Source of the DNA: a virus
Lineage: Duplodnaviria; Heunggongvirae; Uroviricota; Caudoviricetes
DNA length: 54,893 nt
Reading direction: 5' to 3' (one strand)
IMG/VR virus record: IMGVR_UViG_2880378312_000013
The translations under genes were made by a program, and so were the position numbers. Under the pieces are notes generated by a model. It was not told the origin of the DNA and searched no databases. It was given only the letters and a program-made list of their open reading frames with translations. This document shows, in pieces, positions 7,231-54,893 of this stretch (the stretch's first letter is position 1; the number at the start of each line of letters is the position of its first letter).

Positions 7231-7300
7231 ATGGCGTTCAATGGCAGCTTTGTATGCATCACAGCACAATTGACACCACGACAAACCACTAGGTGCTGAC

Positions 7301-8053
7301 ATGACAATCCCAGAACAGAACAATAACCCGATCGTTGAAATTTCTATCCCTGTTTCGACGCAACAGGCGCTTGAGAAAGTGAATGCCACCAAATCTGCAT
7401 GGCTTGAAGCACGTCGTCAGCAAAAAGCGGCAGCGGATAATATTGCGACAATCCGCCAGCGCCGCGCTGAAATGGAAGCCACGACGAACGCCCTGAATGA
7501 GGAGTGGCGCACGCTATTTCGTGAAAGTCAGGGCGTAGTCTCAAAGGAAATGAAAAAACTGCGCACGGAAATTGCGCTGGGACGAGAAACGCTTGAGGAT
7601 TTTGATGAGCTGCTGGCGGCTCAGGAAAGCGAAAATGCACTTTTGCCGCAGGAGGCTGCGGAATTAGCCGGAAAGTATATCCACGCGCACGACACCCTTG
7701 TGGGTATTCGCGCAAAACAAATCTGGGAAGATTTTATGCAGTCGCATGGAAAAGCACTAATCCAGACACTAAGCCTGCTCAAATCAACAATGGGCAGGGA
7801 AGCCAGCGCAGTTGTCGGTGTGGTGCATTCAGTTAATGACCCGGACACACTGCTGAAAGATTTTATTCATAAACATATCACCAGACCGGCTCTGACTAAC
7901 GATGCGATGCCCGAACAGGACCCCGTGTTTAAACTGGCGGGAGTTGCCCCGGATTATGCGGCCCGTCTGGATTTCAGTAATAAACTCTCTCCAGCAGCTA
8001 TGCATAAAATGAAGGTTCGTCAGGAACGTGCTGAGAAGGAGAAAGCAGTATGA
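7301..8053 (+). CDS. Sid-like capsid size determination protein (putative)
   Basis: 250-aa helical/coiled-coil protein first in a sid-psu-delta-like operon; similarity to P4 Sid is from recollection only. Confidence 0.45.
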   Translation: MTIPEQNNNPIVEISIPVSTQQALEKVNATKSAWLEARRQQKAAADNIATIRQRRAEMEATTNALNEEWRTLFRESQGVVSKEMKKLRTEIALGRETLEDFDELLAAQESENALLPQEAAELAGKYIHAHDTLVGIRAKQIWEDFMQSHGKALIQTLSLLKSTMGREASAVVGVVHSVNDPDTLLKDFIHKHITRPALTNDAMPEQDPVFKLAGVAPDYAARLDFSNKLSPAAMHKMKVRQERAEKEKAV

Positions 8054-8601
8054 TGGCCCGAGTCACTCCAGACCAAGCGCTTATCAGTTTTAGAAATGCC
8101 CGTATTCTGTGGGCTGGACATAGTGAGAGCCGAAAAGCCGTTGAACAACAGATAGAATCACTCCTCACTGCCATGGAAAAACCAGCAGATTATGCTCGAC
8201 AGCTCGAATTACAGCGGGAACATCTGGATGTGCTGAAATGGCAAATTAACTGTGCTGCGCGCGAATGCATTTACTCGCAGCATCAACTGATGGAGGCCTG
8301 CACAGAAGACGCTCTCAGCAATTTTATGCAGGCGAATGGAGCAGCCCTGACATCTGCACTGGCTCCGTTCCTGAAGGGGCGCGGAGGGGTTGACGTTGCG
8401 TCCCGTATATTACGCAATGCTCTGGTTCGCCAGCTGGCAATAACACCGCCTGAAATTGCCGGGGATTATCGTATGATTCTGGATGAATCCGGTGTGATGC
8501 CTGACCCCATGATGGTTCGTGATTGCCAGAGCTCTTACACCCCTGCACAACAACTGCGCTTTCAGCAACGTCTGGATTACATTAACGGCATGCAGGAGTA
8601 A
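8050..8601 (+). CDS. Psu-like polarity suppression protein (putative)
   Basis: 183 aa, overlaps the upstream gene by 4 nt; segment FMQANGAALTSALAPFL resembles P4 Psu as I recall it. Confidence 0.5.
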   Translation: MMARVTPDQALISFRNARILWAGHSESRKAVEQQIESLLTAMEKPADYARQLELQREHLDVLKWQINCAARECIYSQHQLMEACTEDALSNFMQANGAALTSALAPFLKGRGGVDVASRILRNALVRQLAITPPEIAGDYRMILDESGVMPDPMMVRDCQSSYTPAQQLRFQQRLDYINGMQE

Positions 8602-8606
8602 TATTA

Positions 8607-8879
8607 ATGGCACTTAAATGTCCCGAATGCGGTACGACGGCACACGCCAGAACCTCCGCCTATGAAGCACCATCGGTTAAACGCTCATGGTATCAGTGCC
8701 AGAATCTTGAATGTTCCTACACATTTACCGCACTGGAAAGTGTGGATACGATAATCATGAAGCCCCGGCGCAATGAACAGGAATCAGAGAAAGCACAAAT
8801 GCCGGAAAAACAACAGCAAACTCTCAATCGCTATGGCTCCGCGTCAAAGCTGTCAAGCCGTCAGCAAATTCCTGTCTGA
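8607..8879 (+). CDS. Ogr/Delta-family zinc-finger late-gene activator
   Basis: CPECG...HARTS...YQCQNLECSYTF pattern matches the Ogr/Delta C4 zinc finger. Confidence 0.75.
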   Translation: MALKCPECGTTAHARTSAYEAPSVKRSWYQCQNLECSYTFTALESVDTIIMKPRRNEQESEKAQMPEKQQQTLNRYGSASKLSSRQQIPV

Positions 8880-8900
8880 TTAGCAAAAAAAGCCCACGTA

Positions 8901-8927
8901 ATCCCGGTCCAGTACTGGGATTTTTTA
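8901..8927 (+). terminator. possible intrinsic terminator after the delta-like gene
   Basis: Short hairpin (atccc...gggat around palindrome ccagtactgg) followed by a T6 run; weak stem. Confidence 0.35.
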
Positions 8928-9288
8928 CGCCTTTTCCCTGGCTGGCCTGAGAGCGCATGAGTGCATGTCTATAGCGCATGAAAACGCATGATTCTCATGC
9001 ACCATTTTTGACGCGAAAGCCCTTGTGTGGTGGCTTCTGAGACGATTTGCGGAATGCATGAAAACCAGTCTGTTAAGCGAAGCGAGCAGGCGTGGGGGGC
9101 TGCGCGCGCTAAGGGGTTAGATTATAAAATATCAAACGCCGGTGAGATCCATTATTGTGGAACCACCCGAAGGAAGTGTAGAGGCGAAAGTACCCAAAAT
9201 AATTTTGCAAATTATTTAGAAATGAACTGAGCGCTCGAAACGAAATATAATTTCGAGCACCCCAATTAGCAGTTATATTTTTAATGTA

Positions 9289-9855
9289 TTAAACAGGATA
9301 AAAACCAGAGCTTCCATTCTTATTTAAGTTATGGATTTTATTTGCATCATTAATTTTTATTTGGAACGTCGGACCTTTATTCTCAAGAATTACAATCTGG
9401 AAATTATAGTCCCTTTTGATTAATGCGTGATAAAATGAATCACTGAGACTGACGCTATTAACATCCGATAGAGAACCCCCTCTATCTTTATCAAAGTGCG
9501 TCACTAATGGACTATCAAGCACAACAAATCCAATGAATGGATTCCCTTTTCTTGATAAAAATTCCGCAAAGCAAATGGTAAATATAGCATGCATTACTGC
9601 ACGGGTACCTTTACCAAACATTCCTCGGCGTTTCCCATTGATATTAAAGTCATATGTATCTTCGTCAAATCGCACTTTGTTATCTTTAGAATTTTCAAAA
9701 TTTATATCATTCAAAAAGTCTTGCATCGCTATTTCTATATCATACAAATCAGCTACTGTTAAGGAGTCAAAGTCCTCGGCGGAGTATTTAAGTTCGTCAA
9801 CATCATCTTCTTTATCTTGTAATGAAGATAGAATGCTATGTTTTGTGTGATCCAT
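9289..9855 (-). CDS. C-terminal head segment of an SMC-like ABC ATPase (Walker B-like region)
   Basis: 188 aa; hydrophobic strand followed by Asp (FIGFVVLDSPL) resembling Walker B but without the canonical Glu; start overlaps the upstream stop as TAATG. Confidence 0.55.
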   Translation of the reverse strand: MDHTKHSILSSLQDKEDDVDELKYSAEDFDSLTVADLYDIEIAMQDFLNDINFENSKDNKVRFDEDTYDFNINGKRRGMFGKGTRAVMHAIFTICFAEFLSRKGNPFIGFVVLDSPLVTHFDKDRGGSLSDVNSVSLSDSFYHALIKRDYNFQIVILENKGPTFQIKINDANKIHNLNKNGSSGFYPV

Positions 9856-10445
9856 TAAAAGATTGTCTTTATATTCATAAAGTGATTCAAGAGATGAATG
9901 TATTGTTTTATATTTTTATCTTCTAACGTCTTAAAATCACTTTTTTCTGATTGATAAATTTCATTAACATCATTTTTTCTTAACATAATTAATTCATGTT
10001 CGCGAACATTAGATCCGATTGATTCAATTAATCCTTTCAGCTGGCTTTTGATTTTCAATTTTTCTGCATTACACGACAAAAAACAATCATCATATGATAT
10101 TTCATTTTCTTTTTTTTGCGGTGTATTACAGAACTCACAATAAATATCTGCAAAATTATTTAAATAGAAATTCGCCTGTGATACAACATCTATTCTTTGT
10201 AGATCTATAAAGTATTGGTCTTTAAGAAGACTAAATCTTTCAATGAGTAATGATAAGTATTTTTCCCTGTCACTGATTGAATATAATTCATCACTTAACT
10301 CTTTTAATAATTGCTTCTTATCATCAAGTGCATCAACAATACCTTTCAATATATCTTTCGATGATTCAATATCTTGCTCTACTTTCTCAAGTTCTCTTGA
10401 AACAATGACTTGATCATATTCAGGATAAATTAATTGCGCTTTCAA
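9855..10445 (-). CDS. coiled-coil middle segment of the SMC-like ABC ATPase
   Basis: 196 aa, highly charged heptad-like sequence, TTG start; in the same frame as the upstream ORF and separated from it by a single TAA. Confidence 0.55.
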   Translation of the reverse strand: MKAQLIYPEYDQVIVSRELEKVEQDIESSKDILKGIVDALDDKKQLLKELSDELYSISDREKYLSLLIERFSLLKDQYFIDLQRIDVVSQANFYLNNFADIYCEFCNTPQKKENEISYDDCFLSCNAEKLKIKSQLKGLIESIGSNVREHELIMLRKNDVNEIYQSEKSDFKTLEDKNIKQYIHLLNHFMNIKTIF

Positions 10446-10475
10446 TTCCTCATAAATATTTGCAATTTGATTTTT

Positions 10476-11135
10476 TTAAAAATATCTTGCTTTTTTATTT
10501 GGTTTTTCTGCTAAGGAGTTAGTATCATCTCTCTGAGTTAAAAGGAATTTAAATTCAGACTTTCTTTTTGTCTCCTCGCTAGGAATATCAGAAAGAATTA
10601 ACGACTTCTCAGTTAACACTCTTAATTCATCAATACAAAAAAATTCAAAAACATTATTAAGATTAAATTTATGAAGAGTATTACTTAAGTTTGTTCTTAC
10701 TTTAGCCTCTTTGAAATTCAACCTACCATAAAAGTATGATGAAAAACTCTTTTTAGACGAAGCACTTTTGGAAAAAACCATCAACAGATTAGCTTCACTA
10801 ACATTTTCAATGCTCGAATCATATAATCTGTAATGGGCGCTATCCTGAAGAGACCTCTCAATTGTCATTACCCTACCTTGAAAATTAAATTCCAGATAGG
10901 CTAAATCATAACCTTGAGCATGATCGATATCTTTATTTTTTAGTTTTTCACTCCCTAATAAATATCGAATCAAATAATATATGTATGTTTTTCCAGAGTC
11001 AGAACCACCATATAAAATAGTCAATTTAGAACCAAATTCAATTATAGCATCTAATTTATTGAATCCGGTTACCTTTATTTTTCTGAACGTAAAAAAATTG
11101 TCATTCATAATTAAATTCCATATCATATTTGCCAA
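10476..11135 (-). CDS. N-terminal head segment of the SMC-like ABC ATPase (Walker A)
   Basis: FRKIKVTGFNKLDAIIEFGSKLTILYGGSDSGKTYI matches the N-terminal strand plus P-loop of SMC/Rad50/RecF-like ATPases; likely true start at MNDNFF. Confidence 0.65.
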   Translation of the reverse strand: MANMIWNLIMNDNFFTFRKIKVTGFNKLDAIIEFGSKLTILYGGSDSGKTYIYYLIRYLLGSEKLKNKDIDHAQGYDLAYLEFNFQGRVMTIERSLQDSAHYRLYDSSIENVSEANLLMVFSKSASSKKSFSSYFYGRLNFKEAKVRTNLSNTLHKFNLNNVFEFFCIDELRVLTEKSLILSDIPSEETKRKSEFKFLLTQRDDTNSLAEKPNKKARYF

Positions 11136-11574
11136 TTTTATTTTTTATAATTGATTGCAACTGCTCATCAGGAATATCACTATATAACTTAACCACCAAA
11201 TTTATATTATGCTCCATCTGCGCAACATATTCATTATGTAGAGAATTTGTAAATGCATATGTTTTTTCAGAAGCTTTATATACAAAACCACGATGTGTAT
11301 AAATTTTTGAGGCTAGTTCATAGCCTTGCAACAAAGCCAATGATTCTAAAACAATCTCTCGTTTTAGGGCTAACTGAGCATCTCTACGGGGTATTGGAGG
11401 ATGAAGACTAATCTCTTCAGGTAAAAAATCCTTAAGATTTACTAAAATAAAATCAAAACAAATAAGCCGTTCAAGGCTTAATGAAGAAGGATAAATAGCG
11501 ACGAGCACTTTCGCCATTCGACATGCCACTTCTAAACTTGAATTATAAATTCTAACCATTATCTCACCGTCCAA
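11101..11574 (-). CDS. small helical protein, candidate middle component of a three-gene defence cassette
   Basis: 157 aa, TTG start, overlaps both neighbours; position matches LmuC/ABC-3C middle components. Confidence 0.45.
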   Translation of the reverse strand: MDGEIMVRIYNSSLEVACRMAKVLVAIYPSSLSLERLICFDFILVNLKDFLPEEISLHPPIPRRDAQLALKREIVLESLALLQGYELASKIYTHRGFVYKASEKTYAFTNSLHNEYVAQMEHNINLVVKLYSDIPDEQLQSIIKNKIGKYDMEFNYE

Positions 11575-12176
11575 ATTACTTCACCATCATTAACCAAATG
11601 ATGGCATATTCCTTTTTTATCATTTGCTTCACATATTTTTGATAGTACTGAATGTGCAATTGGTGTCAGAACAGCCTGCTTCAAGACTGCATTACACCTA
11701 ATAAATGCATAATTATGGTCTTCATAAAAGACGGGTTCAATTGAAGATGAAATGTAACATTTCAATGCTTTGAATACATCATCTTTAAATACTTCGCGGA
11801 CAAAAACCTCAAGCGAAGATGCAAAATAAAAATCATTTCTACTATTATTAAAGTGTCGTCTGTATGGATCATCAAGCTCTAAGAAAGAACTATAAGTTTT
11901 ATTTCCATGCTCTGAATAGGCTTGAAGCAGTGCATTAACATATACAGACTCTTTTTTTGAATTGTATGTTGGAATTTCATTTGGAGGGATTCTCACGACA
12001 TACAGCTCGTTAAAGTACTTAAAATAAAGGTGTGTATTTGCAATATCATTTAAAATCAATGATAAGGGTAGAGAGTAAAAAATACTAAAATCAAAATCCT
12101 CAATATATTTTTTTATTTCATCATCTAATGGAATATCAATCTTTTTAGTTATTTTTTTGAAATTGCTGAATCCCAT
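11559..12176 (-). CDS. C-terminal part of the candidate effector protein (frameshifted relative to the upstream ORF)
   Basis: 205 aa; overlaps the upstream ORF by 28 nt in another frame across an A7 tract. Confidence 0.5.
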   Translation of the reverse strand: MGFSNFKKITKKIDIPLDDEIKKYIEDFDFSIFYSLPLSLILNDIANTHLYFKYFNELYVVRIPPNEIPTYNSKKESVYVNALLQAYSEHGNKTYSSFLELDDPYRRHFNNSRNDFYFASSLEVFVREVFKDDVFKALKCYISSSIEPVFYEDHNYAFIRCNAVLKQAVLTPIAHSVLSKICEANDKKGICHHLVNDGEVIWTVR

Positions 12177-12565
12177 GAATCAAGGACTGCTTTTTTAAGC
12201 TCGTTTTTATTTTTCAATAAATTAGAAAATGTAGTAGATAAATCATAGGGTGCCACAAAAAAGTACTTCTGAGGGATGGGATAATCACCATTCAGAGTAA
12301 AATAGATAAGTTTTCCAAACTCAACTACAACATCAGAGAACCCTAAACTTTTTTTGTACAGTTTGCATTGATAATTATCCCAAGAATAACCTTCTACGTT
12401 AGGATCCGATTTATATCCAACAACGTCTCTACCTTTATCTCCAGCTCCTCCCAAACGTTCGCTCCACGGGTAATCATCTGATTTACAGACAATAAGCCAA
12501 TCATGGACAAATACCTCCCATTGTTCATCATCCCATGTCAATATTTCCGAAAGTGGTTGAGACAC
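12149..12565 (-). CDS. N-terminal part of the candidate effector, PD-(D/E)xK / Mrr-like nuclease-fold motifs
   Basis: 138 aa, GTG start; GAGDKGRDVVGY followed by YQCK resembles the D...(E/Q)xK core of restriction-endonuclease-like folds; assignment is tentative. Confidence 0.45.
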   Translation of the reverse strand: MSQPLSEILTWDDEQWEVFVHDWLIVCKSDDYPWSERLGGAGDKGRDVVGYKSDPNVEGYSWDNYQCKLYKKSLGFSDVVVEFGKLIYFTLNGDYPIPQKYFFVAPYDLSTTFSNLLKNKNELKKAVLDSWDSAISKK

Positions 12566-12568
12566 AAA

Positions 12569-13801
12569 TTAACTCCTTTTTAGTCTTTCAAATATCAAAT
12601 TACTGTACCAGTCCATCATAGACTTCCTTCCACTAAAATATTGAGCATGGTTATAAGTCCCCCTAATAGAATTTTTATCTACATGAGCCAACTGGATTTC
12701 AATCCAAGCACTCTCAAAACCTTGCTCATGCAGGATTGTAGAAAGGGTATGACGAAAACCATGTCCAGTGACTTTTCCTCCATACCCAATACGCTTAATG
12801 GCTTGATTTATACTCGCTTCGCTCATTGGCCTATTCGGATCGTTCCGCCCTGGAAAAACATAACGATAGTTCCCTGTCATGATCTTGAGTTCATTGAGTA
12901 AATCTACCGCTTGAGATGATAAGGGCACAAGATGTGGCCTACGCATTTTCATCCTTTCAGCAGGAATTTCCCAAATAGCGTTATCCAGATCAAATTCTTG
13001 CCATAATGCCGCGCGTAATTCGATGGTTCTCACACCCGTAATCATCAGTAATTTCGTGGCTATCTGGACAAGCTTACTCCCGGAGTAACCCTCTAAGGCA
13101 CGTAGAAAATCAGGTATCTCATCAGCTTTTAGGAATGGGAAATGATTGGATTGGTGTACTTCGAGAGCGCTGGAGAGATCAGCCGCAGGATTGTACTCCG
13201 CCCTACCCGTTGCAATTGCGTAGCGAAACACTTCGGAGCAACGCTGCCGCACTTTGCGCATTTTCTCCAACGCACCACGTTTCTCAATTTTACGCAGAAC
13301 GTTCAGCAGCTCTAGCGGTTTAATCTCTCCCACAGGCCTTGTTCCGACATAAGGAAAAATGTCGTTCTTAAACGCTTCCATGATGTCTGATGCATATCCC
13401 GCCGACCATTTAGCAGATTTAAGTTGATGCCACTCTCTGGCTATCTTTTCGAAGGCGTTCTCTGACTCTGTTTGCATAGCTAGCTTTTGCTCTTTTCGAA
13501 CCTCACTAGGGTTCTTTCCTTCTGCCACAAGTTTTCGAGCTTCATCACGACGGGAACGAGCATCGGCAAGGGTGATCGTTGGGTAAACACCAAGCGAGAT
13601 CATTTTGGGTTTGCCGGCATAGCGATAGCGGAACCGCCAACTCTTGCTTCCATTAGGTTCTATAAGTAATGACAACCCTAGCCCATCTCCAAATGTATAG
13701 GCTTTAGCTTCAGGCTTAGCGCGGCGAATCTGCATATCGTTTAAAGGCATGTGTATAGGAATCCAGACCGAACAGGAACATATACACAATCCTATACACA
13801 T
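12569..13801 (-). CDS. P4-type tyrosine integrase
   Basis: 410-aa ORF with C-terminal catalytic region (HGFRHT...Y); sits next to the partial tRNA-Thr repeat, co-oriented with it; probable start at MPLNDMQ. Confidence 0.9.
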   Translation of the reverse strand: MCIGLCICSCSVWIPIHMPLNDMQIRRAKPEAKAYTFGDGLGLSLLIEPNGSKSWRFRYRYAGKPKMISLGVYPTITLADARSRRDEARKLVAEGKNPSEVRKEQKLAMQTESENAFEKIAREWHQLKSAKWSAGYASDIMEAFKNDIFPYVGTRPVGEIKPLELLNVLRKIEKRGALEKMRKVRQRCSEVFRYAIATGRAEYNPAADLSSALEVHQSNHFPFLKADEIPDFLRALEGYSGSKLVQIATKLLMITGVRTIELRAALWQEFDLDNAIWEIPAERMKMRRPHLVPLSSQAVDLLNELKIMTGNYRYVFPGRNDPNRPMSEASINQAIKRIGYGGKVTGHGFRHTLSTILHEQGFESAWIEIQLAHVDKNSIRGTYNHAQYFSGRKSMMDWYSNLIFERLKRS

Positions 13802-14712: not shown

Positions 14713-15465
14713 TCAGATTCCCTGGTGAGTAAGAATTTTACTTTCTGAACTCCTCTGAGAGTATTGACTTGGAGAAACACCAAAATAACGTCTAAATACA
14801 TAAGTAAAGTATGAGACACTGGCATAACCACAGACCTTAGCTACTTTACTAATAGGATAACAACGAGTGCTGAGTAAATATTCAGCCATTTGCATCCTCT
14901 CATCAAGTATGATCTTACTGAATGATACCCCCTCTTCTTTCAATTTCCTCTTTAGTAAACTTTCGCTGAGATATAATCTTGATGATATATCCTTAAGACG
15001 CCATGGTGCAGATAAATCCGTATGAATAATCGTTTTAACTTTAGCCCCTGTGCTTTTCAAACATCCAAACAGAAATACTCCAAATTGTTTTTCAGAAGAA
15101 AATGCAGAGAGACATGTAAAAGCAATAGACTCATCAAAAATTTCTATGTATTCAGCACAGTGATTAGCCCAACTAATTAATCCTTTAATTAAACTGAAGT
15201 CAGCAAAGTTTATTTTTAAATAAGATGGATATTCCCTACAATCAGAAATATCCCTTAAGTTATTAGCTTTCAAATAGCGACTAATAAACTCAGCGCCAAA
15301 ATCCGCCACTATCACTCTTTCAGGATATGTCAGGAAAAAATCTCTAGAGCTAGAGTCGACAAGTACAGATGAACCTCTCTCCAGAAACACACTCTCTTTT
15401 CCGAAATAAACATCAAAGGACTCCAAAATCAATATAACTGAACATGTAGTTGCCATATCATCCAC
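14713..15465 (-). CDS. AraC-family transcriptional regulator
   Basis: 250 aa, C-terminal AraC-type HTH (ISKVAKVCGYASVSYFTYVFRRYFGVSPSQY); gene is markedly AT-rich. Confidence 0.8.
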   Translation of the reverse strand: MDDMATTCSVILILESFDVYFGKESVFLERGSSVLVDSSSRDFFLTYPERVIVADFGAEFISRYLKANNLRDISDCREYPSYLKINFADFSLIKGLISWANHCAEYIEIFDESIAFTCLSAFSSEKQFGVFLFGCLKSTGAKVKTIIHTDLSAPWRLKDISSRLYLSESLLKRKLKEEGVSFSKIILDERMQMAEYLLSTRCYPISKVAKVCGYASVSYFTYVFRRYFGVSPSQYSQRSSESKILTHQGI

Positions 15466-16184: not shown

Positions 16185-17054
<870 letters not shown>

Positions 17055-17114: not shown

Positions 17115-17714
17115 TCATTTATCTCCGACCGGAAACTTCTTATACAGTGTCGATATACCAACATCATAGATGATCGCCACCTTTTGGCGAGGAACGCCTG
17201 ATGCAATTAATCGCCCGGCCTGCGCCCATTGTTCTGGTGTAAGTTTGGGACGACGTCCACCAATTCGTCCCTGTGCGCGAGCTGCTTCCAGTCCAGCTTT
17301 TGTTCGTTCAACAATCAGTTCACGCTCCATTTCAGCCAGGGCACCCATCACATGAAAGAAAAAGCGCCCCATTGGGGTACTGGTATCAATTGAATCCGTC
17401 AGACTACGAAAGTTGATGCCTCGTTCGCGCAACTCCTCCACCAGCACGACAAGATGCCGCATACTGCGCCCCAGTCGGTCCAGTTTCCAGACCACCAGCG
17501 TGTCACCTGCCGATAATGTCCTGAGCAGCTTTTTCAGTCCTGGTCTGTCGGACTTTGTACCGCTTATCTTGTCTTCAAAAATCAGCTCACATCCTGCACA
17601 CTCCAGCGCATTACGCTGTAATTCCGTATTCTGGTTATTTGTTGATACGCGGACATAGCCAATAAGCATGAGCATTCCCCTGAGTAAAAACCGGGGATGA
17701 TGCCAGTTAGCCAT
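17115..17714 (-). CDS. serine DNA invertase (Gin/Pin/Hin/Cin family)
   Basis: MLIGYVRVSTNNQNTELQ...LVVWKLDRLGRS...GRIGGRRPKLT are hallmark resolvase/invertase motifs; real start at the internal MLIGYV. Confidence 0.9.
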   Translation of the reverse strand: MANWHHPRFLLRGMLMLIGYVRVSTNNQNTELQRNALECAGCELIFEDKISGTKSDRPGLKKLLRTLSAGDTLVVWKLDRLGRSMRHLVVLVEELRERGINFRSLTDSIDTSTPMGRFFFHVMGALAEMERELIVERTKAGLEAARAQGRIGGRRPKLTPEQWAQAGRLIASGVPRQKVAIIYDVGISTLYKKFPVGDK

Positions 17715-37522: not shown

Positions 37523-37816
37523 ATGAAAAAAATGTTATTTTCTGCCGCTCTGGCAATGCTTATTACAGGATGTGCTCAACAGACGTTTACTGTTGGAAAC
37601 AAACCGACAGCAGTAACACCAAAGGAAACCATCACCCATCATTTCTTCGTTTCGGGAATTGGACAGGAGAAAACTGTTGATGCAGCCAAAATTTGTGGCG
37701 GCGCAGAAAATGTGGTTAAAACAGAAACCCAGCAAACATTCGTAAATGGATTGCTCGGTTTTATTACTTTAGGCATTTATACTCCGCTGGAAGCGCGGGT
37801 GTATTGCTCACAATAA
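37523..37816 (+). CDS. bor: Bor lipoprotein (serum-resistance family)
   Basis: MKKMLFSAALAMLITGCAQQTF... with lipobox LITGC; near-identical to lambda Bor as I recall it; opposite strand to neighbours. Confidence 0.85.
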   Translation: MKKMLFSAALAMLITGCAQQTFTVGNKPTAVTPKETITHHFFVSGIGQEKTVDAAKICGGAENVVKTETQQTFVNGLLGFITLGIYTPLEARVYCSQ

Positions 37817-38785: not shown

Positions 38786-39217
38786 TTACTCCTTAGAGCC
38801 ACCAAATTTGTTACCGATTACTCGCATTGCAGCCCCACGAATAGCATCGACACCGATCAGCCCCACCCCACCACCAATGGCAACAGAAAGTGATTTAGGC
38901 CATCCGACATACTCAAGAGCGGATGCAAAGGTCAGCGTCAGAGCGCCACATAGCAAAATCTCGAGCGTTTTTCGCTTCCAGCCACCACCACCGCCAAAAT
39001 AGGCGATGCGCAAACCAGCCATAACGATCGACATAATCACTGCACCCAGCGGTGTGTCTCCACGCCACCAGCTCTGAAACAACTCCAGCCAGTCCGGCCA
39101 GGTATTTGGGTTATGAGGCATTTCGTCATCTCTCACCTCGCGATATTTGCGGGTGCTGTGTTGGAAATAAAAAGGCCACGCAACGTGGCCACCAGAATTA
39201 TTTCCCCACCAGTTCAC
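38786..39217 (-). CDS. putative holin
   Basis: Membrane protein with 2-3 hydrophobic helices directly upstream of the endolysin; likely start at internal MPHNPN. Confidence 0.55.
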   Translation of the reverse strand: MNWWGNNSGGHVAWPFYFQHSTRKYREVRDDEMPHNPNTWPDWLELFQSWWRGDTPLGAVIMSIVMAGLRIAYFGGGGGWKRKTLEILLCGALTLTFASALEYVGWPKSLSVAIGGGVGLIGVDAIRGAAMRVIGNKFGGSKE

Positions 39218-39257: not shown

Positions 39258-39572
39258 TTAAACACCTAACGCCCGACGCCCCAGCGCCATTGCTGCTTTT
39301 ATTGTGGAACCGAATCCCATAAAGAAATCAGCAACCAGATCACCAGGTCGACTACTGGCATTGATTATTTGCCTGAGCATATCCGCCGGTTTCTCGCACG
39401 GATGTTTACCCGGGTAGAACTGAACGGGCTTATGCGTCCTGACATCGGTATAAGGCACGGAGACTGATACGGAGAAATAGCGCCGGTGAGATTTAAACTC
39501 ATCCAGCAATTCAGAAGATTTGCAATTCAGTGAATCATGAGATACCACCAACTGGTGGTAGGATTGTCTCAA
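39258..39572 (-). pseudogene. DNA methyltransferase fragment (N6/N4 MTase C-terminal piece)
   Basis: 104 aa containing HPCEKPADMLRQII and DLVADFFMGFGSTIKAA motifs but lacking the rest of the enzyme. Confidence 0.6.
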
Positions 39573-39742: not shown

Positions 39743-39771
39743 AAACAAAAAGCCCCACAATATGTGGGGCT
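39743..39771 (-). terminator. intrinsic terminator closing the moron
   Basis: Hairpin gccccacaatatgtggggc followed on the minus strand by a U-run. Confidence 0.5.
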
Positions 39772-39829
39772 CCTTCGCGATTTATAGTAAAATAATCGAT
39801 TCTCTAGCTGAAAAAATCTTTAAAAATTA

Positions 39830-40063
39830 TCAGCAATACGCAAGTTTTTTACCGTCATCCGGTACTAGTTTGATCACTACACCAGGATTCTTACGCTCTA
39901 ACATCTGAGTTTGACTCCATGTAATACCAAAGGTTTCCATTGGAGATGCATTGCCAGCAAAGAGTTCGGCGACGACTTTAGCTGCCTCAATCTCTATCTG
40001 CTCATGATGTTTCATAAAAATCCCCTTGTTCAGCACTAAGCTGTAGTTGCTTCTTTGAAGCAT
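39830..40063 (-). CDS. hypothetical small protein (moron, second gene)
   Basis: 77-aa ORF (likely about 61 aa from MKHHEQ) between the GNAT-like gene and the terminator. Confidence 0.35.
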   Translation of the reverse strand: MLQRSNYSLVLNKGIFMKHHEQIEIEAAKVVAELFAGNASPMETFGITWSQTQMLERKNPGVVIKLVPDDGKKLAYC

Positions 40064-40206
40064 AAAGGCAACAAAGTTTGTTACCTGAAGATGTATAAAG
40101 TAAAGCGTAGTACATTTTGTGTGTGCTTTGTGTGGATCCAGATTGCATCAACTAAAAGAGGTTTTCAATACTTTTGTAATGATTCTGGAGAAATTAAGAA
40201 TCTAAC

Positions 40207-40749
40207 TCACACTGATTGGTTAGGTAAAACGCTCCTAAGCACCATTGCGCAACCACCTCGTTCGTAATCAGCAATGTACTCAAAACCACTTTCAGTATAG
40301 TATCTTATTGCCCCATCAACTGGACTAACTAAAGCTATCGAATCAATAGATTCACCCTGAAGGTTCAGAAATCGTGCATATGCAGAGAAGCAATCCAAAA
40401 CGATACCAAGCATCTGATGGTCTAGGTCTTCATGTGCATCATTACGTTTTTCCATCCAGCAAATATGCACCGCATTTTTCGGCTTACAGTAACACCCAAA
40501 TGCAAATCCAATAGGCTCCCCACGATAATAAACAACTAGTTTTATCGGGTGTTCTTCCATCATATCCATAAACACTCGCGACTTTAGTCCGGGATCCCAC
40601 CGCAGTTTATTGTTAGCCTTGAGGAACTCCATATCTTTTAGTACCAGCTCGTCGGCATATACGAGCCCTAACGACTTATGAGGGAAGCGCCCTTTTAAAT
40701 ACTCTGCAACATTTTTAAATACTGCTGTTTGGAAGGCTTGAAACATCAT
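40207..40749 (-). CDS. GNAT-fold acyltransferase-like protein (moron)
   Basis: 180 aa; LVVYYRGEPIGFAFG...AIRYYTESGFEYI resembles GNAT core motifs; AT-rich; located between Q and lysis genes. Confidence 0.5.
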   Translation of the reverse strand: MMFQAFQTAVFKNVAEYLKGRFPHKSLGLVYADELVLKDMEFLKANNKLRWDPGLKSRVFMDMMEEHPIKLVVYYRGEPIGFAFGCYCKPKNAVHICWMEKRNDAHEDLDHQMLGIVLDCFSAYARFLNLQGESIDSIALVSPVDGAIRYYTESGFEYIADYERGGCAMVLRSVLPNQSV

Positions 40750-40825
40750 GTCGATCCAGACGAGACGAAAGTTTAAATTCTACCTACTCGCCGAATACCA
40801 TTTCAATGCCACACATCTAAAATTC

Positions 40826-40852
40826 CGAAAAAAAACCCGCACATCAGCGGGT
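40826..40852 (-). terminator. tR'-like intrinsic terminator downstream of Q
   Basis: Hairpin cccgcacatcagcggg followed on the minus strand by U8. Confidence 0.5.
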
Positions 40853-40960
40853 TTTCTACTTTTTATTAAAGCCGGACACACAATGCCTATCATTGAGAAA
40901 ATATTATCCATTTTTTTTGAAAAATGCAAGCATCATGTCGCCATTTTCGTCGAAAATCAT

Positions 40961-41713
40961 TCATCTCGTCACTTTCCTCAATTGTGTCTCAGCATACGCT
41001 TCTTCCTGCCAGCACTTTGTAACCAGTTTATCAATGACATCTGCATATCCTTTGTACCACTGATAATCCGTCAGGTCTGGTACCAGCTTCTGGACATGAA
41101 GCCGCGCCAGTGTGGTTGGTAAACGGCTAAACCGGTTTCCATTGCAACGCCCACAAACCTTATAAACAGGCGTGCCATGAAGCCTGGTTCTTTTTTCATC
41201 CAGGACAATACCTTTACCCTTACACCCTCTGCACGCTGTGCTGACTTCTCCCTTACCATGACAATGCTGACACAGTTCCTTCACCCACTCTTCCTTGATA
41301 ACAGATTCCCCGCTTCTGGAGTGTTTCACCACCTCGCGCAATACATCATGAAATCCAGTACCAGCACAATGCTCACAGCGAGCCTTACTTGCCGCAGACC
41401 TGGAATAATCAGCAAAGGCAAAATTCACAAGGTAAGGAATGATCTGTAGCCGGGTTTCTTCACTCAATTTGTTCAATGTCGGGTTATCCAGTGCCATCGC
41501 GTAATTGAGCAGACCTTCAATCGCAAACTGAGGATCCTGAACACCAACTTTTGCCAGGAATAAGGCAAACCCAAGCGGTGCTTTCGACTGCACCATCCCC
41601 TGCGCAGCCATTACATCCGTAATTGTTAAACCACCAGAGCCTGTCGCCGGTGCGTCATCGCTCAATTTTGGAGATTTTGGGGAGTAATATTTCGGTAAGG
41701 CTTCAAAGTTCAT
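40961..41713 (-). CDS. antitermination protein Q (zinc-finger type)
   Basis: 250 aa with Cys clusters (CEHCAGTG...CQHCHGKG...CRGCKGKG...CGRCNG) at the lambdoid Q position. Confidence 0.65.
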   Translation of the reverse strand: MNFEALPKYYSPKSPKLSDDAPATGSGGLTITDVMAAQGMVQSKAPLGFALFLAKVGVQDPQFAIEGLLNYAMALDNPTLNKLSEETRLQIIPYLVNFAFADYSRSAASKARCEHCAGTGFHDVLREVVKHSRSGESVIKEEWVKELCQHCHGKGEVSTACRGCKGKGIVLDEKRTRLHGTPVYKVCGRCNGNRFSRLPTTLARLHVQKLVPDLTDYQWYKGYADVIDKLVTKCWQEEAYAETQLRKVTR

Positions 41714-48995: not shown

Positions 48996-49883
48996 TCAGG
49001 CTGCCAGATCATCGTTTCTGATGGAAGCATAATAAGCTTTTTCTGCTTCTGCCGGAGGGATATGACCCAGCCTTCCCAGCAATCGTCGATTGTTATACCA
49101 GTCCACCCACGTGAGTGTGGCCAGTTCCACTTCTGCACGGTTTTTCCAGCTCTTACGGTGTATTACCTCCGCTTTGTAAAGACCATTGATGCTCTCCGCC
49201 ATCGCGTTGTCATACGAGTCACCTGTACTCCCTGTTGATGCCAGCAGTTTTGCTTCTTTTAGTCGCTCCGTATAGGCCAGTGATACATACTGAGAACCTT
49301 TATCACTGTGATGGACTGTGCCGGACGGCCGACGGGCCCACAACGCCTGCTCCAGTGCATCCAGCACGAATGTCGTTTCCATAGACGATGAGACTCGCCA
49401 CCCCACGATACATCCGGAAAACACATCAATGATGAACGCCACATAGACGAAGCCCTGCCATGTGCTGACGTAAGTAAAATCAGCCACCCACAGCTGGTCA
49501 GGACGTTCTGCCACGAACTGACGGTTTACGCGGTCGCCTGCGGAAACGGCTTTCCGGCTGACGGTAGTACGGACCTTTTTACCCCGGAGAACACCGGCAA
49601 GTCCCATAACCGCCATGAGGCGCGCCACTGTACATCTGGCCACCCTGATACCTTCGCGTAACAACTGGCGCCAGACTTTACGCACACCGTACACCTGATG
49701 ATTTTCATCGTATACGCGCTGTATCTCTCTCTTCAGCCAGTCATCGCGCTGCGCACGGGCACTGCGTTTATCCGGATGATGTCGCTGTTGCTGACAGTGG
49801 TAATACGTTGACGGGGCAATATGCAGTTCACTGCATACCGGTCCGACCCCGTACTGCTCACGCAGCTTATCCAGCAGCGGCAT
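48996..49883 (-). CDS. IS3-family transposase orfB (DDE integrase core)
   Basis: 295 aa with rve-type catalytic core. Confidence 0.9.
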   Translation of the reverse strand: MPLLDKLREQYGVGPVCSELHIAPSTYYHCQQQRHHPDKRSARAQRDDWLKREIQRVYDENHQVYGVRKVWRQLLREGIRVARCTVARLMAVMGLAGVLRGKKVRTTVSRKAVSAGDRVNRQFVAERPDQLWVADFTYVSTWQGFVYVAFIIDVFSGCIVGWRVSSSMETTFVLDALEQALWARRPSGTVHHSDKGSQYVSLAYTERLKEAKLLASTGSTGDSYDNAMAESINGLYKAEVIHRKSWKNRAEVELATLTWVDWYNNRRLLGRLGHIPPAEAEKAYYASIRNDDLAA

Positions 49884-52045: not shown

Positions 52046-52395
52046 TGGAGCCATACAGCCTCACACTCGATGAGGCCTGTCATTTTCTCAAGATATCCAG
52101 ACCGACTGCCATTAACTGGATACGCACAGGGCGTCTTCAGGCAACACGCAAAGATCCCACTAAGAATAAATCTCCTTACCTCACAACACGACAAGCCTGC
52201 ATTGCGGCTCTTCAGTCTCCGCTGCATACTGTCCAGGTGAGCGCGGGTGATGGCATAACAGAGGAAAGAAAATGTCACTCTTCCGCAGAGGTGAAATATG
52301 GTACGCCAGTTTCACATTGCCGAACGGTAAAAGATTTAAACAGTCTCTTGGAACAAAGGACAAAAGGCAGGCGACAGAACTCCATGACAAGCTAA
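52045..52395 (+). CDS. xis: excisionase (P22 Xis-like)
   Basis: [36 protein letters not shown]... HTH; overlaps int start. Confidence 0.7.
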
Positions 52396-53435
52396 AGGCT
52401 GAAGCATGGCGGGTCAGCAAACTTGGTGAAATACCTGATATAACGTTCGAGGAAGCGTGTGTCAGGTGGCTTGAAGAGAAAGCACATAAAAAATCGCTGG
52501 ACGATGACAAAAGCCGGATCGGATTCTGGCTTCAACATTTCGCAGGAATGCAACTAAGAGACATTACTGAATCAAAAATTTATTCAGCAATGCAGAAAAT
52601 GACGAACCGGCGTCATGAGGAAAACTGGAAACTCAGGGCAGAAGCATGCAGAAAAAAAGGGAAACCTGTTCCAGAATACACGCCAAAACCAGCGTCCGTT
52701 GCAACGAAGGCTACGCATCTTTCATTTATAAAGGCCCTACTAAGAGCCGCAGAGCGTGAATGGAAAATGCTGGATAAGGCACCAATTATTAAAGTGCCTC
52801 AACCAAAGAATAAACGGATCCGCTGGCTGGAGCCCCATGAAGCACAAAGGCTGATTGATGAATGTCCGGAGCCATTAAAGTCTGTTGTTGAATTTGCACT
52901 GGCAACAGGCTTAAGACGCTCGAACATCATCAACCTTGAATGGCAACAAATAGATATGCAGCGCCGGGTGGCATGGATAAACCCGGAAGAGAGTAAATCA
53001 AACCGCGCAATTGGCGTTGCGCTGAATGATACTGCATGTCGCGTATTGAAAAAACAAATCGGGAATCATCACCGTTGGGTATTTGTGTACAAGGAAAGCT
53101 GTACCAAACCAGACGGAACGAAAGCGCCAACAGTAAGGAAGATGCGGTATGACGCAAACACAGCCTGGAAAGCGGCGCTGAGACGGGCTGGTATTGATGA
53201 TTTCAGATTTCACGACTTGAGACACACCTGGGCAAGTTGGCTGGTTCAAGCCGGAGTCCCGTTGTCAGTGTTACAGGAAATGGGAGGCTGGGAGTCTATC
53301 GAAATGGTTCGTCGATATGCTCACCTTGCACCTAATCACCTTACCGAACACGCACGGCAAATAGACTCGATCCTGAACCCATCGGTCCCAAATTTGTCCC
53401 AGTCAAAAAATAAGGAAGGTACTAATGATGTGTAA
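52272..53435 (+). CDS. int: tyrosine integrase (P22-type)
   Basis: 387 aa ending in the catalytic box ([39 protein letters not shown]); stops 15 nt from the tRNA-Thr 3' end. Confidence 0.95.
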
Positions 53436-53449
53436 CTTATTGATTTTAA

Positions 53450-53525
53450 TGGTGCCGATAATAGGAGTCGAACCTACGACCTTCGCATTACGAATGCGCT
53501 GCTCTACCAACTGAGCTATATCGGC
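53450..53525 (-). tRNA. thrW: tRNA-Thr (anticodon CGU)
   Basis: Reverse complement gives GCCGATATAGCTCAGTTGGTAGAGCAGCGCATTCGTAATGCGAAGGTCGTAGGTTCGACTCCTATTATCGGCACCA with intact cloverleaf and CCA. Confidence 0.9.
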
Positions 53526-53639
53526 CCTGAAAGGACATGTTCACGAACGTGAATCACGGTGGACAAGGTTAAAACTAACCGGGCGATGCGTCAATGGCCT
53601 TGTGAATCAAACGGCTACTTTTGCATCACCCGGTTTTAT

Positions 53640-54893
53640 TTACGCACGAATGGTGTAATCACCAATGCCGATCCACTTGTAAGTGGTCAGTGCTTCCAGC
53701 CCCATTGGGCCACGCGCGTGGAGTTTTTGTGTGCTTACCGCCACTTCCGCACCCAGTCCAAACTGGCCGCCGTCGGTAAAACGCGTAGAGGCGTTAACGT
53801 AAACAGCGGACGAATCCACTTCGTTAACAAAACGCTGGGCGTTGCGCATATCGCGGGTCAGGATCGCATCGGAGTGTTGCGTGCCGTGTTCACGAATATG
53901 GGCGATGGCATCGTCAAGATCGCTGACGATTTTGACGTTCAAATCTAATGACAGAAACTCATCGTCATACTCTTCGGCTTTAACCGCCACCACCTTCGCA
54001 GGGCCTGTCTGCAACTGCGCCAGCGCAGATGCATCTGCGTGTAACGTCACGCCGCTTTCCGCCATTTGTTTGCTTAATGCGGGCAGGAAGCTATAGGCGA
54101 TGTTTTTATTCACCAGCAACGTTTCTACCGTATTACATGTGCTCGGACGCTGAGTTTTCGCATTGACGATTACTTTCAGGGCTTCAGCAATCTCTGCACT
54201 TTCATCAACATAAATATGGCATACGCCTATACCACCTGTGATCACCGGGATCGTCGACTGCTCGCGGCACAGTTTATGCAAACCAGCCCCGCCGCGCGGG
54301 ATCAGCATGTCGATGTATTTATCCATACGCAGCATTTCACTGACCAGCGCACGGTCAGGATTATCAATCGCCTGCACGGCACCCGCCGGTAAGCCACAGG
54401 ATTTCAGGGCGTCCTGAATCACCACCACCGTTGCCGCGTTAGTGCGACAGGTTTCTTTGCCACCACGCAGGATCACCGCGTTACCGGTTTTCAGGCACAG
54501 CGAAGCGACATCAACCGTCACGTTCGGGCGCGCTTCATAAATCACGCCAATAACCCCCAGCGGTACGCGACGACGCTCAAGACGCAGGCCGCTGTCCAGT
54601 ACGCCGCCATCGATTACCTGCCCCACTGGATCGGCGAGGTTGCACACCTGACGTACATCGTCGGCAATGCCTTTCAGCCGTGCGGGCGTCAGTGCCAGAC
54701 GGTCAAGCATCGCTTCGCTAAGGCCATTGGCTCGCGCGTCAGCAACATCCTGGGCGTTAGCGTTGAGGATGATTTCGCTTTGTGCTTCCAGTTCATCGGC
54801 GATTTTTTCCAGCACGCGATTTTTTTCGCGGCTGGAGAGTTGCGCTAATTTATACGAGGCTTGCTTCGCGGCAATGCCCATTTGTTCCAGCAT
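53640..54893 (-). CDS. proA: gamma-glutamyl phosphate reductase
   Basis: 417-aa ORF, aldehyde-dehydrogenase fold; conserved proA-thrW neighbourhood. Confidence 0.95.

Follow-up and report, generated by a model that had tools for sequence, protein, structure and literature searches.

A prophage integrated at thrW in E. coli carries, between its late antiterminator gene Q and its lysis genes, a mobile cassette of two genes, one for a 180-aa protein predicted to have a divergent GNAT fold and one for a small protein that has diverged together with it. The window analysed here is the whole 54,893-nucleotide stretch of viral DNA, and the cassette occupies about 1.1 kb of its minus strand. The Q-to-lysis slot carries Stx and other conversion genes, so that any other occupant of it is relevant to the biology of O157:H7. 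Here the slot is occupied by two proteins without a name in the databases, belonging to a tiny family and combining an enzyme fold with an altered cofactor site and a co-inherited small partner. What is new here is the small gene as a strictly co-inherited, co-diverging partner of the GNAT-fold gene. For the function of the pair we favour, with low confidence and a probability of roughly one in three, a conflict module in which a partner controls an effector.

The cassette between Q and the lysis genes

Q, the cassette and the lysis-side elements all lie on the minus strand and are present where the first-pass annotation had placed them. Q itself (40961-41713), which forms the context of the cassette and stands outside the cassette proper, encodes a 250-aa late antiterminator of the ydfT/QuuQ-like type (Pfam Antiterm PF03589, E 8e-53; phrog_127; RefSeq 'antitermination protein'). 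Just 3' of Q, sequence reading and a hexamer scan predicted a pR'-like late promoter (CTTGCA-16-GATAAT, 40903-40930). It is followed at ~40828-40857 by a tR'-like intrinsic terminator, located by terminator scan and folding, in which GAAAACCCGC and GCGGGUUUUC enclose the loop and a U run (U8) comes next; this structure folds at -15.9 kcal/mol (z -4.18), and none of 200 shuffles folded equally well. On the 3' side of tR' and 28 nt ahead of the GNAT-fold gene, the scan predicted a sigma-70-like promoter with 10 of 12 matches to the consensus (TTGAAA-18-TAGAAT, 40777-40806).

The gene for the GNAT-fold protein (40207-40749; phrog_11949; RefSeq WP_021519681, 'hypothetical protein') is separated by an AT-rich spacer of 191 nt (40016-40206, GC 0.35) from the gene for the 61-aa partner (39830-40015; phrog_11292; RefSeq WP_000680348, also 'hypothetical protein'). 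The latter is preceded by a good Shine-Dalgarno sequence (AAGGGGA), and its length was taken from homology and from the RefSeq call instead of from the maximal ORF of 77 aa. Judged by comparison, both ORFs are real genes, because the homologues of each show protein-level conservation, down to ~20% identity. Scanning and folding located a small hairpin with UUUAUGCUU inside the spacer (40066-40086), perhaps an attenuator or a weak terminator. The 191-nt spacer as a whole had no significant structure (fold z -1.45) and no match in an Rfam search, and a structured RNA was rejected there apart from this small hairpin.

The unit ends in an intrinsic terminator (39747-39775), also found by terminator scan and folding, which folds at -20.2 kcal/mol (z -4.78, with 0 of 200 shuffles folding equally well) and bears out the earlier claim that the unit is closed by a terminator of its own. 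Terminator-like sites number 5 in the 1.9-kb region, against 1.1 ± 0.8 expected. The description of the locus as an AT-rich two-gene unit directly downstream of Q and a tR'-like terminator was likewise sound, the 1.1-kb cassette having a GC content of 0.40, whereas the prophage has 0.515 and the genes for Q, holin and lysozyme have 0.48-0.53. Next comes the remnant of an N6/N4 DNA methyltransferase gene (39258-39572, Pfam PF01555), N-terminally truncated, which retains the C-terminal 104 aa, covers profile positions 156-209 of 221 and is called a pseudogene in RefSeq; the full-length gene (~350 aa) is present in the relatives L012, L013, L010 and L023. The remnant is followed by a lambda-family holin, a GH24 lysozyme and Rz.

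The first-pass annotation had regarded the unit as a moron and had proposed a comparison with the Q-to-S regions of related prophages. That comparison agreed with it, since prophages with the same ydfT-type Q hold other cargo in the slot. L012, L013 and L014 share Q, the DUF968 and KilA-N genes and the holin with this prophage, but these flank other cargo there; L015 combines the same cassette with another lysis module. Homology with other ydfT-type Q regions stops at 40828/40829, at tR' (matches H34-H37 start at query position 2044), and homology to cassette-free relatives restarts at 39559/39560. The comparisons showed that the cassette took the place of the usual cargo of the Q-to-lysis slot, directly after tR', and that the locus is an autonomous, horizontally mobile two-gene accessory cassette, that is, a moron.

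Lying between Q-pR'-tR' and the lysis genes, the cassette points in the direction of late transcription, and in this prophage the Q-modified polymerase must read through it before reaching the lysis genes. The promoter-like site of the cassette should in addition permit its expression in the lysogen. An obligatory coupling of its expression to late transcription, as first assumed, was not upheld by the family: relatives are found in reverse orientation, beyond the lysis genes, in tail regions, in P2-like prophages and outside prophages, with predicted promoters of their own. Since relatives occupy these other orientations and sites, the Q-S position is not a property of the family, and the coupling is a mere positional consequence in this prophage.

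A divergent GNAT fold and its co-inherited partner

The alignment-based AlphaFold model of the 180-aa protein (pLDDT 87) has the canonical order b1-a1-a2-b2-b3-b4-a3-b5-a4-b6-b7, and in this model the protein has a complete GNAT acyltransferase fold, extended by an N-terminal helix (residues 2-21). The structural reading rests on this alignment-based model, the single-sequence model reaching a pLDDT of only 44. The closest structural neighbours are the protein N-terminal acetyltransferases RimI, NatD and Naa50, and further ones include SpeG, PaiA, the streptothricin and phosphinothricin acetyltransferases and RimL.

The earlier identification of the protein as GNAT-like stood for the predicted fold and for motif B, but not for motif A or for any match to a sequence profile. 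Both the alignment and the model lack motif A, the Q/RxxGxG/A pyrophosphate-binding loop between beta4 and alpha3. Its place is taken by K101-R-N-D-A-H-E-D-L-D-H-Q112, in which D104-A-H-E-D-L109 is by register equivalent to Q76-R-Q-G-L-G81 of RimI. No glycine-rich loop is conserved across the wider-family alignment, and this, together with the replacement of the loop by DAHEDL, makes the use of acyl-CoA uncertain and a pseudoenzyme conceivable. A comparison of the family profile with that of RimI was not significant (probability 4%) and was used solely to set the register of the b2-b3 hairpin.

The helix of motif B, alpha4, is present as A147-IR-Y-Y151-TES-G155-F156 (AxxxYxxxGF) and can be aligned with AIALYESLGF of RimI, which puts Tyr151 at the place of the RimI catalytic Tyr. 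Within the close branch Y151 and F156 are invariant; across the whole family near-invariance in this motif is limited to G155, and distant branches have F, L, M or W in place of the Tyr. Several GNATs have their general base as an acidic residue on strand beta4, and Glu100, on this strand, is near-invariant in the whole family, where only seven positions are invariant or near-invariant. The most strongly conserved stretch in the enterobacterial branch is the b4-a3 loop, WMEKRNDAHEDLDHQ. The family is acidic, with a median pI of 5.2; the GNAT toxins that acetylate tRNA are basic. With the GNAT N-acetyltransferases (RimI 5isv, NatD/Naa40 4u9w, Naa50 2ob0/3tfy, Gcn5 1m1d) the protein thus has in common the motif-B helix and the acidic residue on beta4, whereas it differs from them in a sequence identity of only 7-18%, in having the acidic DAHEDL for Q/RxxGxG/A, in the absence of any profile-level relationship, in the added helix and in coming with an obligate 60-aa partner gene.

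Searches of Pfam and NCBIfam (including Acetyltransf_1, _3, _7 and _10) returned no family match for the 180-aa protein even at E <= 1, and one of 35 family members matched Acetyltransf_1, at E 0.19. The first-pass annotation had recommended a profile search of both proteins; in the PDB such searches gave nothing for the GNAT-fold protein or its family, and the partner matched nothing in Pfam, NCBIfam or the PDB and had no recognisable DNA-binding or antitoxin domain. Over all profile annotation of the two proteins (Pfam, NCBIfam, PADLOC, PHROGs and PDB, with single sequences and family profiles), the sole assignments were the two PHROGs, which carry no functional annotation. Assignment of the small protein to the excisionase/AlpA-type HTH regulators (Aca-like) was also rejected: hhalign comparisons with AlpA and lambda Xis were null, and the protein is neutral to acidic.

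The first-pass annotation had treated the small ORF as incidental. Wherever a relative had sufficient sequence 3' of the GNAT-fold gene, we found the small gene there, on the same strand; this yielded 16 distinct pairs, and over 13 of these the distances among the GNAT-fold proteins correlate with those among the partners (Mantel r 0.85, with none of 5000 permutations as high). By these comparisons the ~60-aa protein is an obligate partner that co-evolves with the GNAT-fold protein. Its core is conserved (P25, F29, L39), whereas the N-terminal residues and the tail vary. Usually a Cys stands among the ~10 C-terminal residues of the tail and the chain terminates in Ala, Ala-Cys or Cys-Gly, but L019 has no tail Cys, and in L020 the sole Cys lies farther from the C-terminus.

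The spacer between the two genes measures 56-237 nt across relatives, and the genes are not translationally coupled. Alignments of the upstream and spacer DNA of the relatives were too divergent to inform on a conserved motif, and promoters and terminators were assessed by a scan of each locus instead. These scans predicted a terminator and/or a near-consensus promoter inside the spacer in many relatives, strong terminators 3' of the small gene in most relatives examined, and promoter-like sites also upstream of the Pragia and Limnobaculum homologues. Because the spacers of many relatives carry such signals, the pair looks like two tandem, separately transcribed units bounded by a final strong terminator.

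Distribution and insertion sites

The family comprises 36 representatives among 1.84 billion proteins. The cassette is present in 94 of 5426 complete E. coli genomes (1.7%) and in one of 50,697 phage records, frequencies that do not fit a common conserved lambdoid gene, the alternative against which the first-pass annotation had set its own reading. Among the E. coli matches, genomes from cattle and of O157:H7 are enriched. The hosts of the family are Enterobacterales, together with genomes of Vibrio- and Aeromonas-type hosts. A single plasmid match, in the unannotated record CP044351.1 (IncX4), has the same cassette with many frameshifts, which are most likely an assembly error.

Chromosomal E. 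coli copies, among the loci inspected, occupy the Q-to-lysis slot only. Across the family there are at least six kinds of insertion context; the pair was found in Q-lysis slots, at a post-lysis site, at a lambda K-I tail site, in the P2 gpA-gpQ hotspot and in non-phage islands, in some relatives in the opposite orientation. A HicB-like antitoxin gene, as we take it to be from sequence reading, adjoins a Photorhabdus copy, and one Photorhabdus copy lies beside what is presumably, on the same grounds, a chloramphenicol acetyltransferase-like gene. Two Vibrio-type relatives are located in the cos-proximal gpA-gpQ interval of P2-like prophages, where one of them adjoins putAbiC. This part of P2 is on record as a hotspot in which anti-phage systems reside, old and tin among them (Rousset et al. 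2022, PMC9122126). As evidence for a role in defence the hotspot location is circumstantial, and the contexts beyond it are generic moron sites.

Possible functions of the pair

The conflict module that we favour is suggested by the copies in the P2 gpA-gpQ hotspot, by the putAbiC and HicB-like neighbours, by the obligate pairing, by the autonomy and mobility of the cassette and by a GNAT fold with motif B and Glu100. In such a module the GNAT-fold protein would be an acyl-transfer effector acting on a basic cellular or phage target, with Glu100 on beta4 as the putative catalytic base and Tyr151 of the AxxxYxxxGF helix, at least in the enterobacterial branch, as the putative general acid; that Tyr151 is not conserved in distant branches counts against this. 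The small protein would bind and control the effector as a neutraliser, a sensor or a specificity subunit, and the pair would act in phage-phage conflict as a toxin-antitoxin-like, abortive-infection or exclusion module, and not as a virulence toxin. In RnlAB and LsoAB the toxin gene comes first and the antitoxin is expressed from a promoter of its own, and the cassette resembles these modules in architecture only, having the larger, effector gene first and a small downstream gene that apparently has its own promoter; there is no relationship of sequence or fold. With the accessory anti-phage systems of the P2 gpA-gpQ region (PMC9122126) it shares an interval through the two relatives described above, but it has no homology to any catalogued defence protein. 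In PADLOC-DB v2 no defence model was matched by the two cassette proteins or by 10 diverse relatives, apart from a match at chance level (E 0.06). This negative search weighs against a conflict module, as do the replaced pyrophosphate-binding loop, the acidity of the family, a partner in which neither a DNA-binding nor an antitoxin domain was recognised and the lack of translational coupling.

The first-pass annotation had proposed an acetyltransferase toxin, and for either form of it, Stx-like or TacT/AtaT-type, no link was found beyond the generic fold. A Stx-like virulence toxin, or an effector that modifies host cells, expressed late under Q and set free at lysis, would suit the co-oriented position between Q-pR'-tR' and the lysis genes as well as the enrichment of genomes from cattle and of O157:H7 in the E. 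coli matches. [quoted passage not shown] With stx and other Q-tR'-S cargo, and with classical morons such as bor and lom, the cassette shares the slot, the orientation, the variability of the cargo, a promoter and terminator of its own and a deviant GC content, but it is unrelated to any toxin and is not tied to the Q-S slot. Neither a signal peptide nor a toxin domain was found in the cassette proteins, relatives lie reversed, within tail modules, outside prophages altogether or, in Vibrio-type hosts, in P2-like prophages, and the predicted promoter and terminator argue against an obligatory Q dependence; we give this reading very little credence. A classical GNAT/RHH toxin-antitoxin system (TacAT, AtaRT, KacAT, ItaRT), which would acetylate aminoacyl-tRNA, is highly improbable as well, although the format of a GNAT-fold protein of ~175-180 aa with a small protein, on mobile elements, is common to both. 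Those systems have the antitoxin first in an overlapping operon, whereas the cassette has the GNAT first, in tandem units with a long spacer. Its partner has no DUF1778/RHH match and its GNAT-fold protein no Acetyltransf_1 match, and the latter is acidic, has lost the CoA loop and is no more similar to TacT than to unrelated GNATs.

A detoxifying lysogenic-conversion enzyme, which would acylate a small molecule to the lysogen's advantage, the small protein serving as chaperone or regulator, seems unlikely to us. Its substrate could be an aminoglycoside- or streptothricin-like antibiotic, processed microcin C or a polyamine. An acidic GNAT suits cationic small molecules, and SpeG, PaiA, the streptothricin/phosphinothricin acetyltransferases and RimL are among the structural neighbours; the presumed chloramphenicol acetyltransferase-like gene beside a Photorhabdus copy and a predicted promoter for expression in the lysogen point the same way. 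Resistance GNATs, however, work alone, which leaves the obligate co-evolving 60-aa partner unexplained, the CoA loop is missing, and structurally the protein resembles these enzymes no more than it does other GNATs. We also hold it unlikely that the protein is a pseudoenzyme, its fold a scaffold that together with the partner would inhibit a host or phage factor (anti-defence or exclusion). The loss of motif A without any glycine-rich loop conserved in the family, the restriction of (near-)invariance to seven positions and the failure of sequence profiles to recognise the protein are consistent with such a binding module, and phage accessory slots also hold anti-defence genes. Against it, the conserved Glu100 (beta4), Pro143 (after beta5) and G155/F156 (motif B) sit at GNAT active-site places, and the strong conservation of the b4-a3 loop in the enterobacterial branch suggests a functional site. 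Strict pairing and co-evolution would also be expected of an enzyme and its substrate, the GNAT-fold enzyme modifying the small protein, for instance by acylation at its N-terminus or in its Cys/Ala-containing C-terminal tail, so that, as in a pared-down RiPP-type or protein-acylation system, the active agent would be the modified protein or peptide. The conserved core and variable, usually Cys-bearing tail of the partner fit this arrangement, as do the nearest structures, which are protein N-terminal acetyltransferases. At the loci examined, however, there is no conserved adjoining protease, exporter or immunity gene, the N-terminal residues vary and a tail Cys is not found in all partners, and a precursor and its modifying enzyme are seldom in separate transcription units; we regard this arrangement as improbable.

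A more specific form of the conflict module is put forward only tentatively. The cassette could be a previously unrecognised two-component phage-conflict moron, in which a GNAT-fold effector with an atypical, acidic cofactor loop is checked or directed by a co-evolving 60-aa protein with a promoter of its own, and which would shield lysogens by exclusion or abortive infection or counteract the defences of the host by acylating proteins. In a more unusual version, the enzyme may modify its own partner to produce the active species. Our literature searches returned no paper naming WP_021519681, WP_000680348 or their PHROG ids, and no title or abstract on GNATs with defence, morons or hotspots that described such a pair. 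Should the pair serve in defence, exclusion or anti-defence, it would represent a new GNAT-based mechanism in the conflict between phage and host, in the form of a compact two-gene system; if it is inert, the locus would still be a clean case of modular cargo exchange exactly at tR'.

The late region and its exchangeable cargo

The layout proposed in the first-pass annotation, in which Q and a tR'-like terminator are followed by an AT-rich two-gene unit with its own terminator, was found complete in the window, with all of its parts on the minus strand. The Q antiterminator gene, a 250-aa ORF (40961-41713; Pfam PF03589, E 8e-53; phrog_127) with DUF968 and KilA-N genes (Pfam, RefSeq) upstream, is followed past its stop codon by a predicted pR'-like promoter (CTTGCA-16-GATAAT, 40903-40930) and, ~50 nt further on, by the tR'-like intrinsic terminator (~40828-40857; -15.9 kcal/mol, z -4.2, U8 tail). 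Another promoter-like site, TTGAAA-18-TAGAAT (40777-40806), is predicted between tR' and the 180-aa GNAT-fold ORF (40207-40749), which a 191-nt spacer separates from the small ORF of 61 aa (39830-40015), whose start is preceded by AAGGGGA. The maximal 77-aa form of the small ORF was rejected, since a start at MKHH is shared by its homologues, the PHROG profile and the RefSeq call. A further strong terminator, at 39747-39775 (-20.2 kcal/mol, z -4.8), closes the cassette, which has a GC content of 0.40 versus 0.515 for the prophage. Next comes what is left of an N6/N4 DNA methylase gene, its 104 C-terminal codons (39258-39572; a RefSeq pseudogene), and then the lambda-family holin, GH24 lysozyme and Rz genes (Pfam, RefSeq), still on the minus strand.

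The maximal holin ORF (38786-39217) has a GTG start and 143 codons, while RefSeq gives 111 aa (38786-39121); the N-terminal extension is probably untranslated, because the Pfam match to the long form begins at its residue 35. Just after Rz, on the plus strand, lies a bor/iss serum-resistance lipoprotein gene (37523-37816), a second, classical moron of the same late region.

Among 5426 complete E. coli genomes, 94 carried the 1.4-kb cassette region at 99.8-100% identity, always as a single chromosomal copy, and many of these genomes are from cattle or O157:H7 strains; one phage record, vB_EcoM-689R6, also carries it. Unlike this rare cassette, the Q gene has relatives at 90-95% identity in ~3300 genomes. 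Homology to these same-Q relatives breaks at 40828/40829, in the U-tract of tR', and restarts at 39559/39560, within the methylase. Moreover, three prophages sharing Q, DUF968 and KilA-N with the window hold other cargo in the slot: in L012 a 64-aa ORF with a full-length methylase, in L013 a lipoprotein together with a 67-aa ORF and a methylase, and in L014 a 261-aa hypothetical protein. The breakpoints and the alternative cargo therefore indicate that cargo is swapped exactly downstream of tR'. In a further relative (L015) the identical cassette and methylase stump are joined to another lysis module, essD/rrrD. The methylase is cut off where the cassette segment has its left breakpoint (39559/39560), and relatives retain the full methylase (~350 aa) at the same place; the insertion that brought in the cassette also deleted the methylase N-terminus. 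The moron reading, for which a comparison with the Q-to-S regions of related prophages had been proposed, thus stands, and the locus is firmly established as a self-contained moron in a variable slot.

The GNAT-fold protein and its partner

The 180-aa protein (WP_021519681) matched no Pfam, NCBIfam or PADLOC model, its sole match being phrog_11949, of unknown function. Its family is small: 5.8 billion sequences yielded 28 clusters (90% identity), exhaustive HMM searching of 1.84 billion proteins found 36 representatives, and a search of one genome per species (185,579 species) gave 5 loci. All full-length members are single-domain proteins of 173-199 aa; the family is acidic (median pI 5.2). 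AlphaFold gave a pLDDT of 44 from the single sequence, and we used instead a model built on a 27-sequence alignment (pLDDT 87, pTM 0.85), which has the order b1-a1-a2-b2-b3-b4-a3-b5-a4-b6-b7 with an extra helix in front. Foldseek searches with this model, in the PDB and among viral models, again returned the GNAT fold (E ~1e-6, TM ~0.5). The confident model and the Foldseek agreement therefore bear out the fold call of the first-pass annotation, and as a modelled structure the GNAT fold is firmly supported.

The protein is nevertheless an outlier among GNAT-fold proteins. To place the motifs we used the E. coli RimI sequence, verified against 5isv, the b2-b3 register from hhalign and the secondary structure of the model. 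RimI motif A (Q76-R-Q-G-L-G81) aligns to D104-A-H-E-D-L109, so that both glycines are lost and an acidic loop takes their place; the wider family conserves no glycine-rich loop, and the CoA loop is clearly degenerate. Motif B can be recognised as A147-xxx-Y151-xxx-G155-F156 (compare AIALYESLGF in RimI), with Tyr151 substituted in distant branches. Of the GNAT motifs sought on alignment, then, motif A is missing and motif B present. Q7, D39, Y74, G85, E100, P143 and G155 are (near-)invariant family-wide. E100 is located on beta4, where several GNATs have their general base.

The chief addition to the earlier account is that the small protein (WP_000680348) is an obligate partner. A homologue was found downstream of the GNAT-fold gene, on the same strand, in all relatives with sufficient downstream DNA, which come from Proteus, Pragia, Limnobaculum, Erwinia, Photorhabdus, Vibrio-type and Aeromonas-type genomes and metagenomic contigs. 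These ORFs encode 54-64 aa at a gap of 56-237 nt; one (L030), overlooked by the gene caller, was recovered by HMM. Pairwise identities of the two proteins correlate (Mantel r 0.85, 13 pairs; 0 of 5000 permutations as high), and therefore the two genes are inherited and diverge together. That the small protein is an obligate, co-evolving partner is firmly established. Its family is equally narrow (37 clusters, all unannotated). The core is conserved (P25, F29, L39; SPMExFG..W..MLER..P in the enterobacterial branch) and the tail variable, usually with a Cys among the ~10 final residues and ending in Ala, Ala-Cys or Cys-Gly. No profile in Pfam, NCBIfam, PADLOC or the PDB matched it, phrog_11292 (function unknown) being its sole match, and hhalign comparisons with AlpA and Xis were negative.

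Genomic settings and transcription signals

The stx-equivalent position assigned to the cassette holds for this prophage and fails as a property of the family. Behind PF03589- and PF06530-type Q genes, the pair occupies the Q-to-holin slot in the window and four relatives (L004, L010, L020, L023). Elsewhere it lies on the opposite strand between Q-like and lysis genes, beside umuDC-like genes (L017, L018), between lambda-like tail genes K and I (L026, Erwinia), or by an IS fragment and a methyltransferase among chromosomal genes (L009, Limnobaculum). In Photorhabdus australis (L024) it adjoins what we take, reading the sequences, to be HicB-like and CAT-like genes near a PVC/T6SS-like cluster. 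In Pragia fontium (L003) it sits past the lysis cassette, ahead of a pyocin-S gene. Two different P2-like prophages (L016, L030) carry it in the gpA-to-portal interval, in L030 adjoining a putAbiC gene; this interval is a hotspot of anti-phage systems (Rousset et al., PMC9122126). The pair is thus at home in accessory sites of phages, two of its relatives lying in a recognised defence hotspot, and the variety of settings therefore marks it as an autonomous mobile module.

In the Pragia locus (7444-9037) the genes directly after the pair are that for the pyocin-S-type bacteriocin and a 100-aa ORF that is probably the matching immunity gene, so that a single prophage slot, between lysis genes and terminase, contains two cargo modules in a row. 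An unannotated IncX4 plasmid record (CP044351.1, 39590-40100) also contains the cassette, with both genes frameshifted many times, which looks like long-read assembly error, not real decay.

The two genes are never adjacent. Many relatives have a spacer with an intrinsic terminator behind the GNAT-fold gene (L003, L007, L009, L024, L026, L027), and in many a near-consensus promoter is predicted ahead of the small gene (TTGACC-17-TAGAAT in L017, TTGCAT-16-TATAAT in L020, TTGACT-17-TATTTT in L019, TTGACT-17-TAAGAT in L030); a strong terminator lies 3' of the small gene in most relatives examined. The window spacer has a modest hairpin followed by UUUAUGCUU (40066-40086, -9.2 kcal/mol) and gave no Rfam match. 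Separate transcription signals for the two genes are thus predicted, and the cassette has the appearance of two monocistronic genes in tandem rather than of an operon with translational coupling. Since Q-modified polymerase must cross the cassette in this prophage, it would also be transcribed late, as the first-pass annotation had supposed; from the promoter-like site past tR', the cassette is predicted to be expressed in the lysogen too.

Candidate functions and neighbouring elements

The two proteins probably function together, the small one most plausibly binding the enzyme-like one. Because of the genomic contexts we tentatively favour, at a probability of about 0.35, a conflict module in which the GNAT-fold effector, with an active site built on E100 (and Y151 in the enterobacterial branch), would acylate a basic target under the control of the small partner. 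This could be a system of the toxin-antitoxin-like, abortive-infection or exclusion type, or possibly an anti-defence one. A bona fide TacT/AtaT-type toxin-antitoxin system shares the fold but fails on gene order, antitoxin domain, charge and CoA loop, and is very improbable.

It is unlikely that the GNAT-fold protein detoxifies a small molecule with the other as accessory protein, and a catalytically dead scaffold that serves in binding is similarly doubtful. That the two form an enzyme-substrate pair yielding a modified small protein is quite improbable, and a late virulence factor of the Stx kind, which the position in this prophage would recall, is highly unlikely. Neither protein was named in the literature and databases searched. 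Neither the fold nor the genomic niche is new in itself. The novelty lies in how the features combine: an orphan GNAT branch without motif A comes with a strictly linked small partner, in a two-unit architecture that hops between phage hotspots. For phage-defence and toxin-antitoxin specialists, the conflict-module candidate is compact and cheaply testable, with nothing surprising in it yet.

A P4-like satellite (2665-13801) adjoins the prophage, with a primase-helicase (2665-5055, minus), Ash (5553-6110, minus), two Psu-like ORFs (7301-8053 and 8050-8601, plus) and an integrase (12569-13801, minus). Between psu and int it holds an ABC-three-component (ABC-3C) system, comprising MC2 (11101-11574), a CTD6 effector (11559-12176) and an ABC/SMC-like ATPase, which is apparently split over three ORFs (10476-11135, 9855-10445, 9289-9855) and so may be frameshifted. 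An AraC-family regulator (14713-15465, minus), a GIY-YIG (LEM-3-like) nuclease-domain protein (16230-17054, plus) and a Hin-like invertase (17115-17714, minus) lie between the satellite integrase and the prophage tail-fibre genes, and an rve-family IS transposase (HTH_21 and rve; 48996-49883) is inserted in the prophage early region. Within 52272-54893, the prophage integrase (52272-53435, plus) abuts tRNA-Thr(CGT) (53450-53525, minus) and a proA-like aldehyde dehydrogenase gene, which places the integration at thrW.
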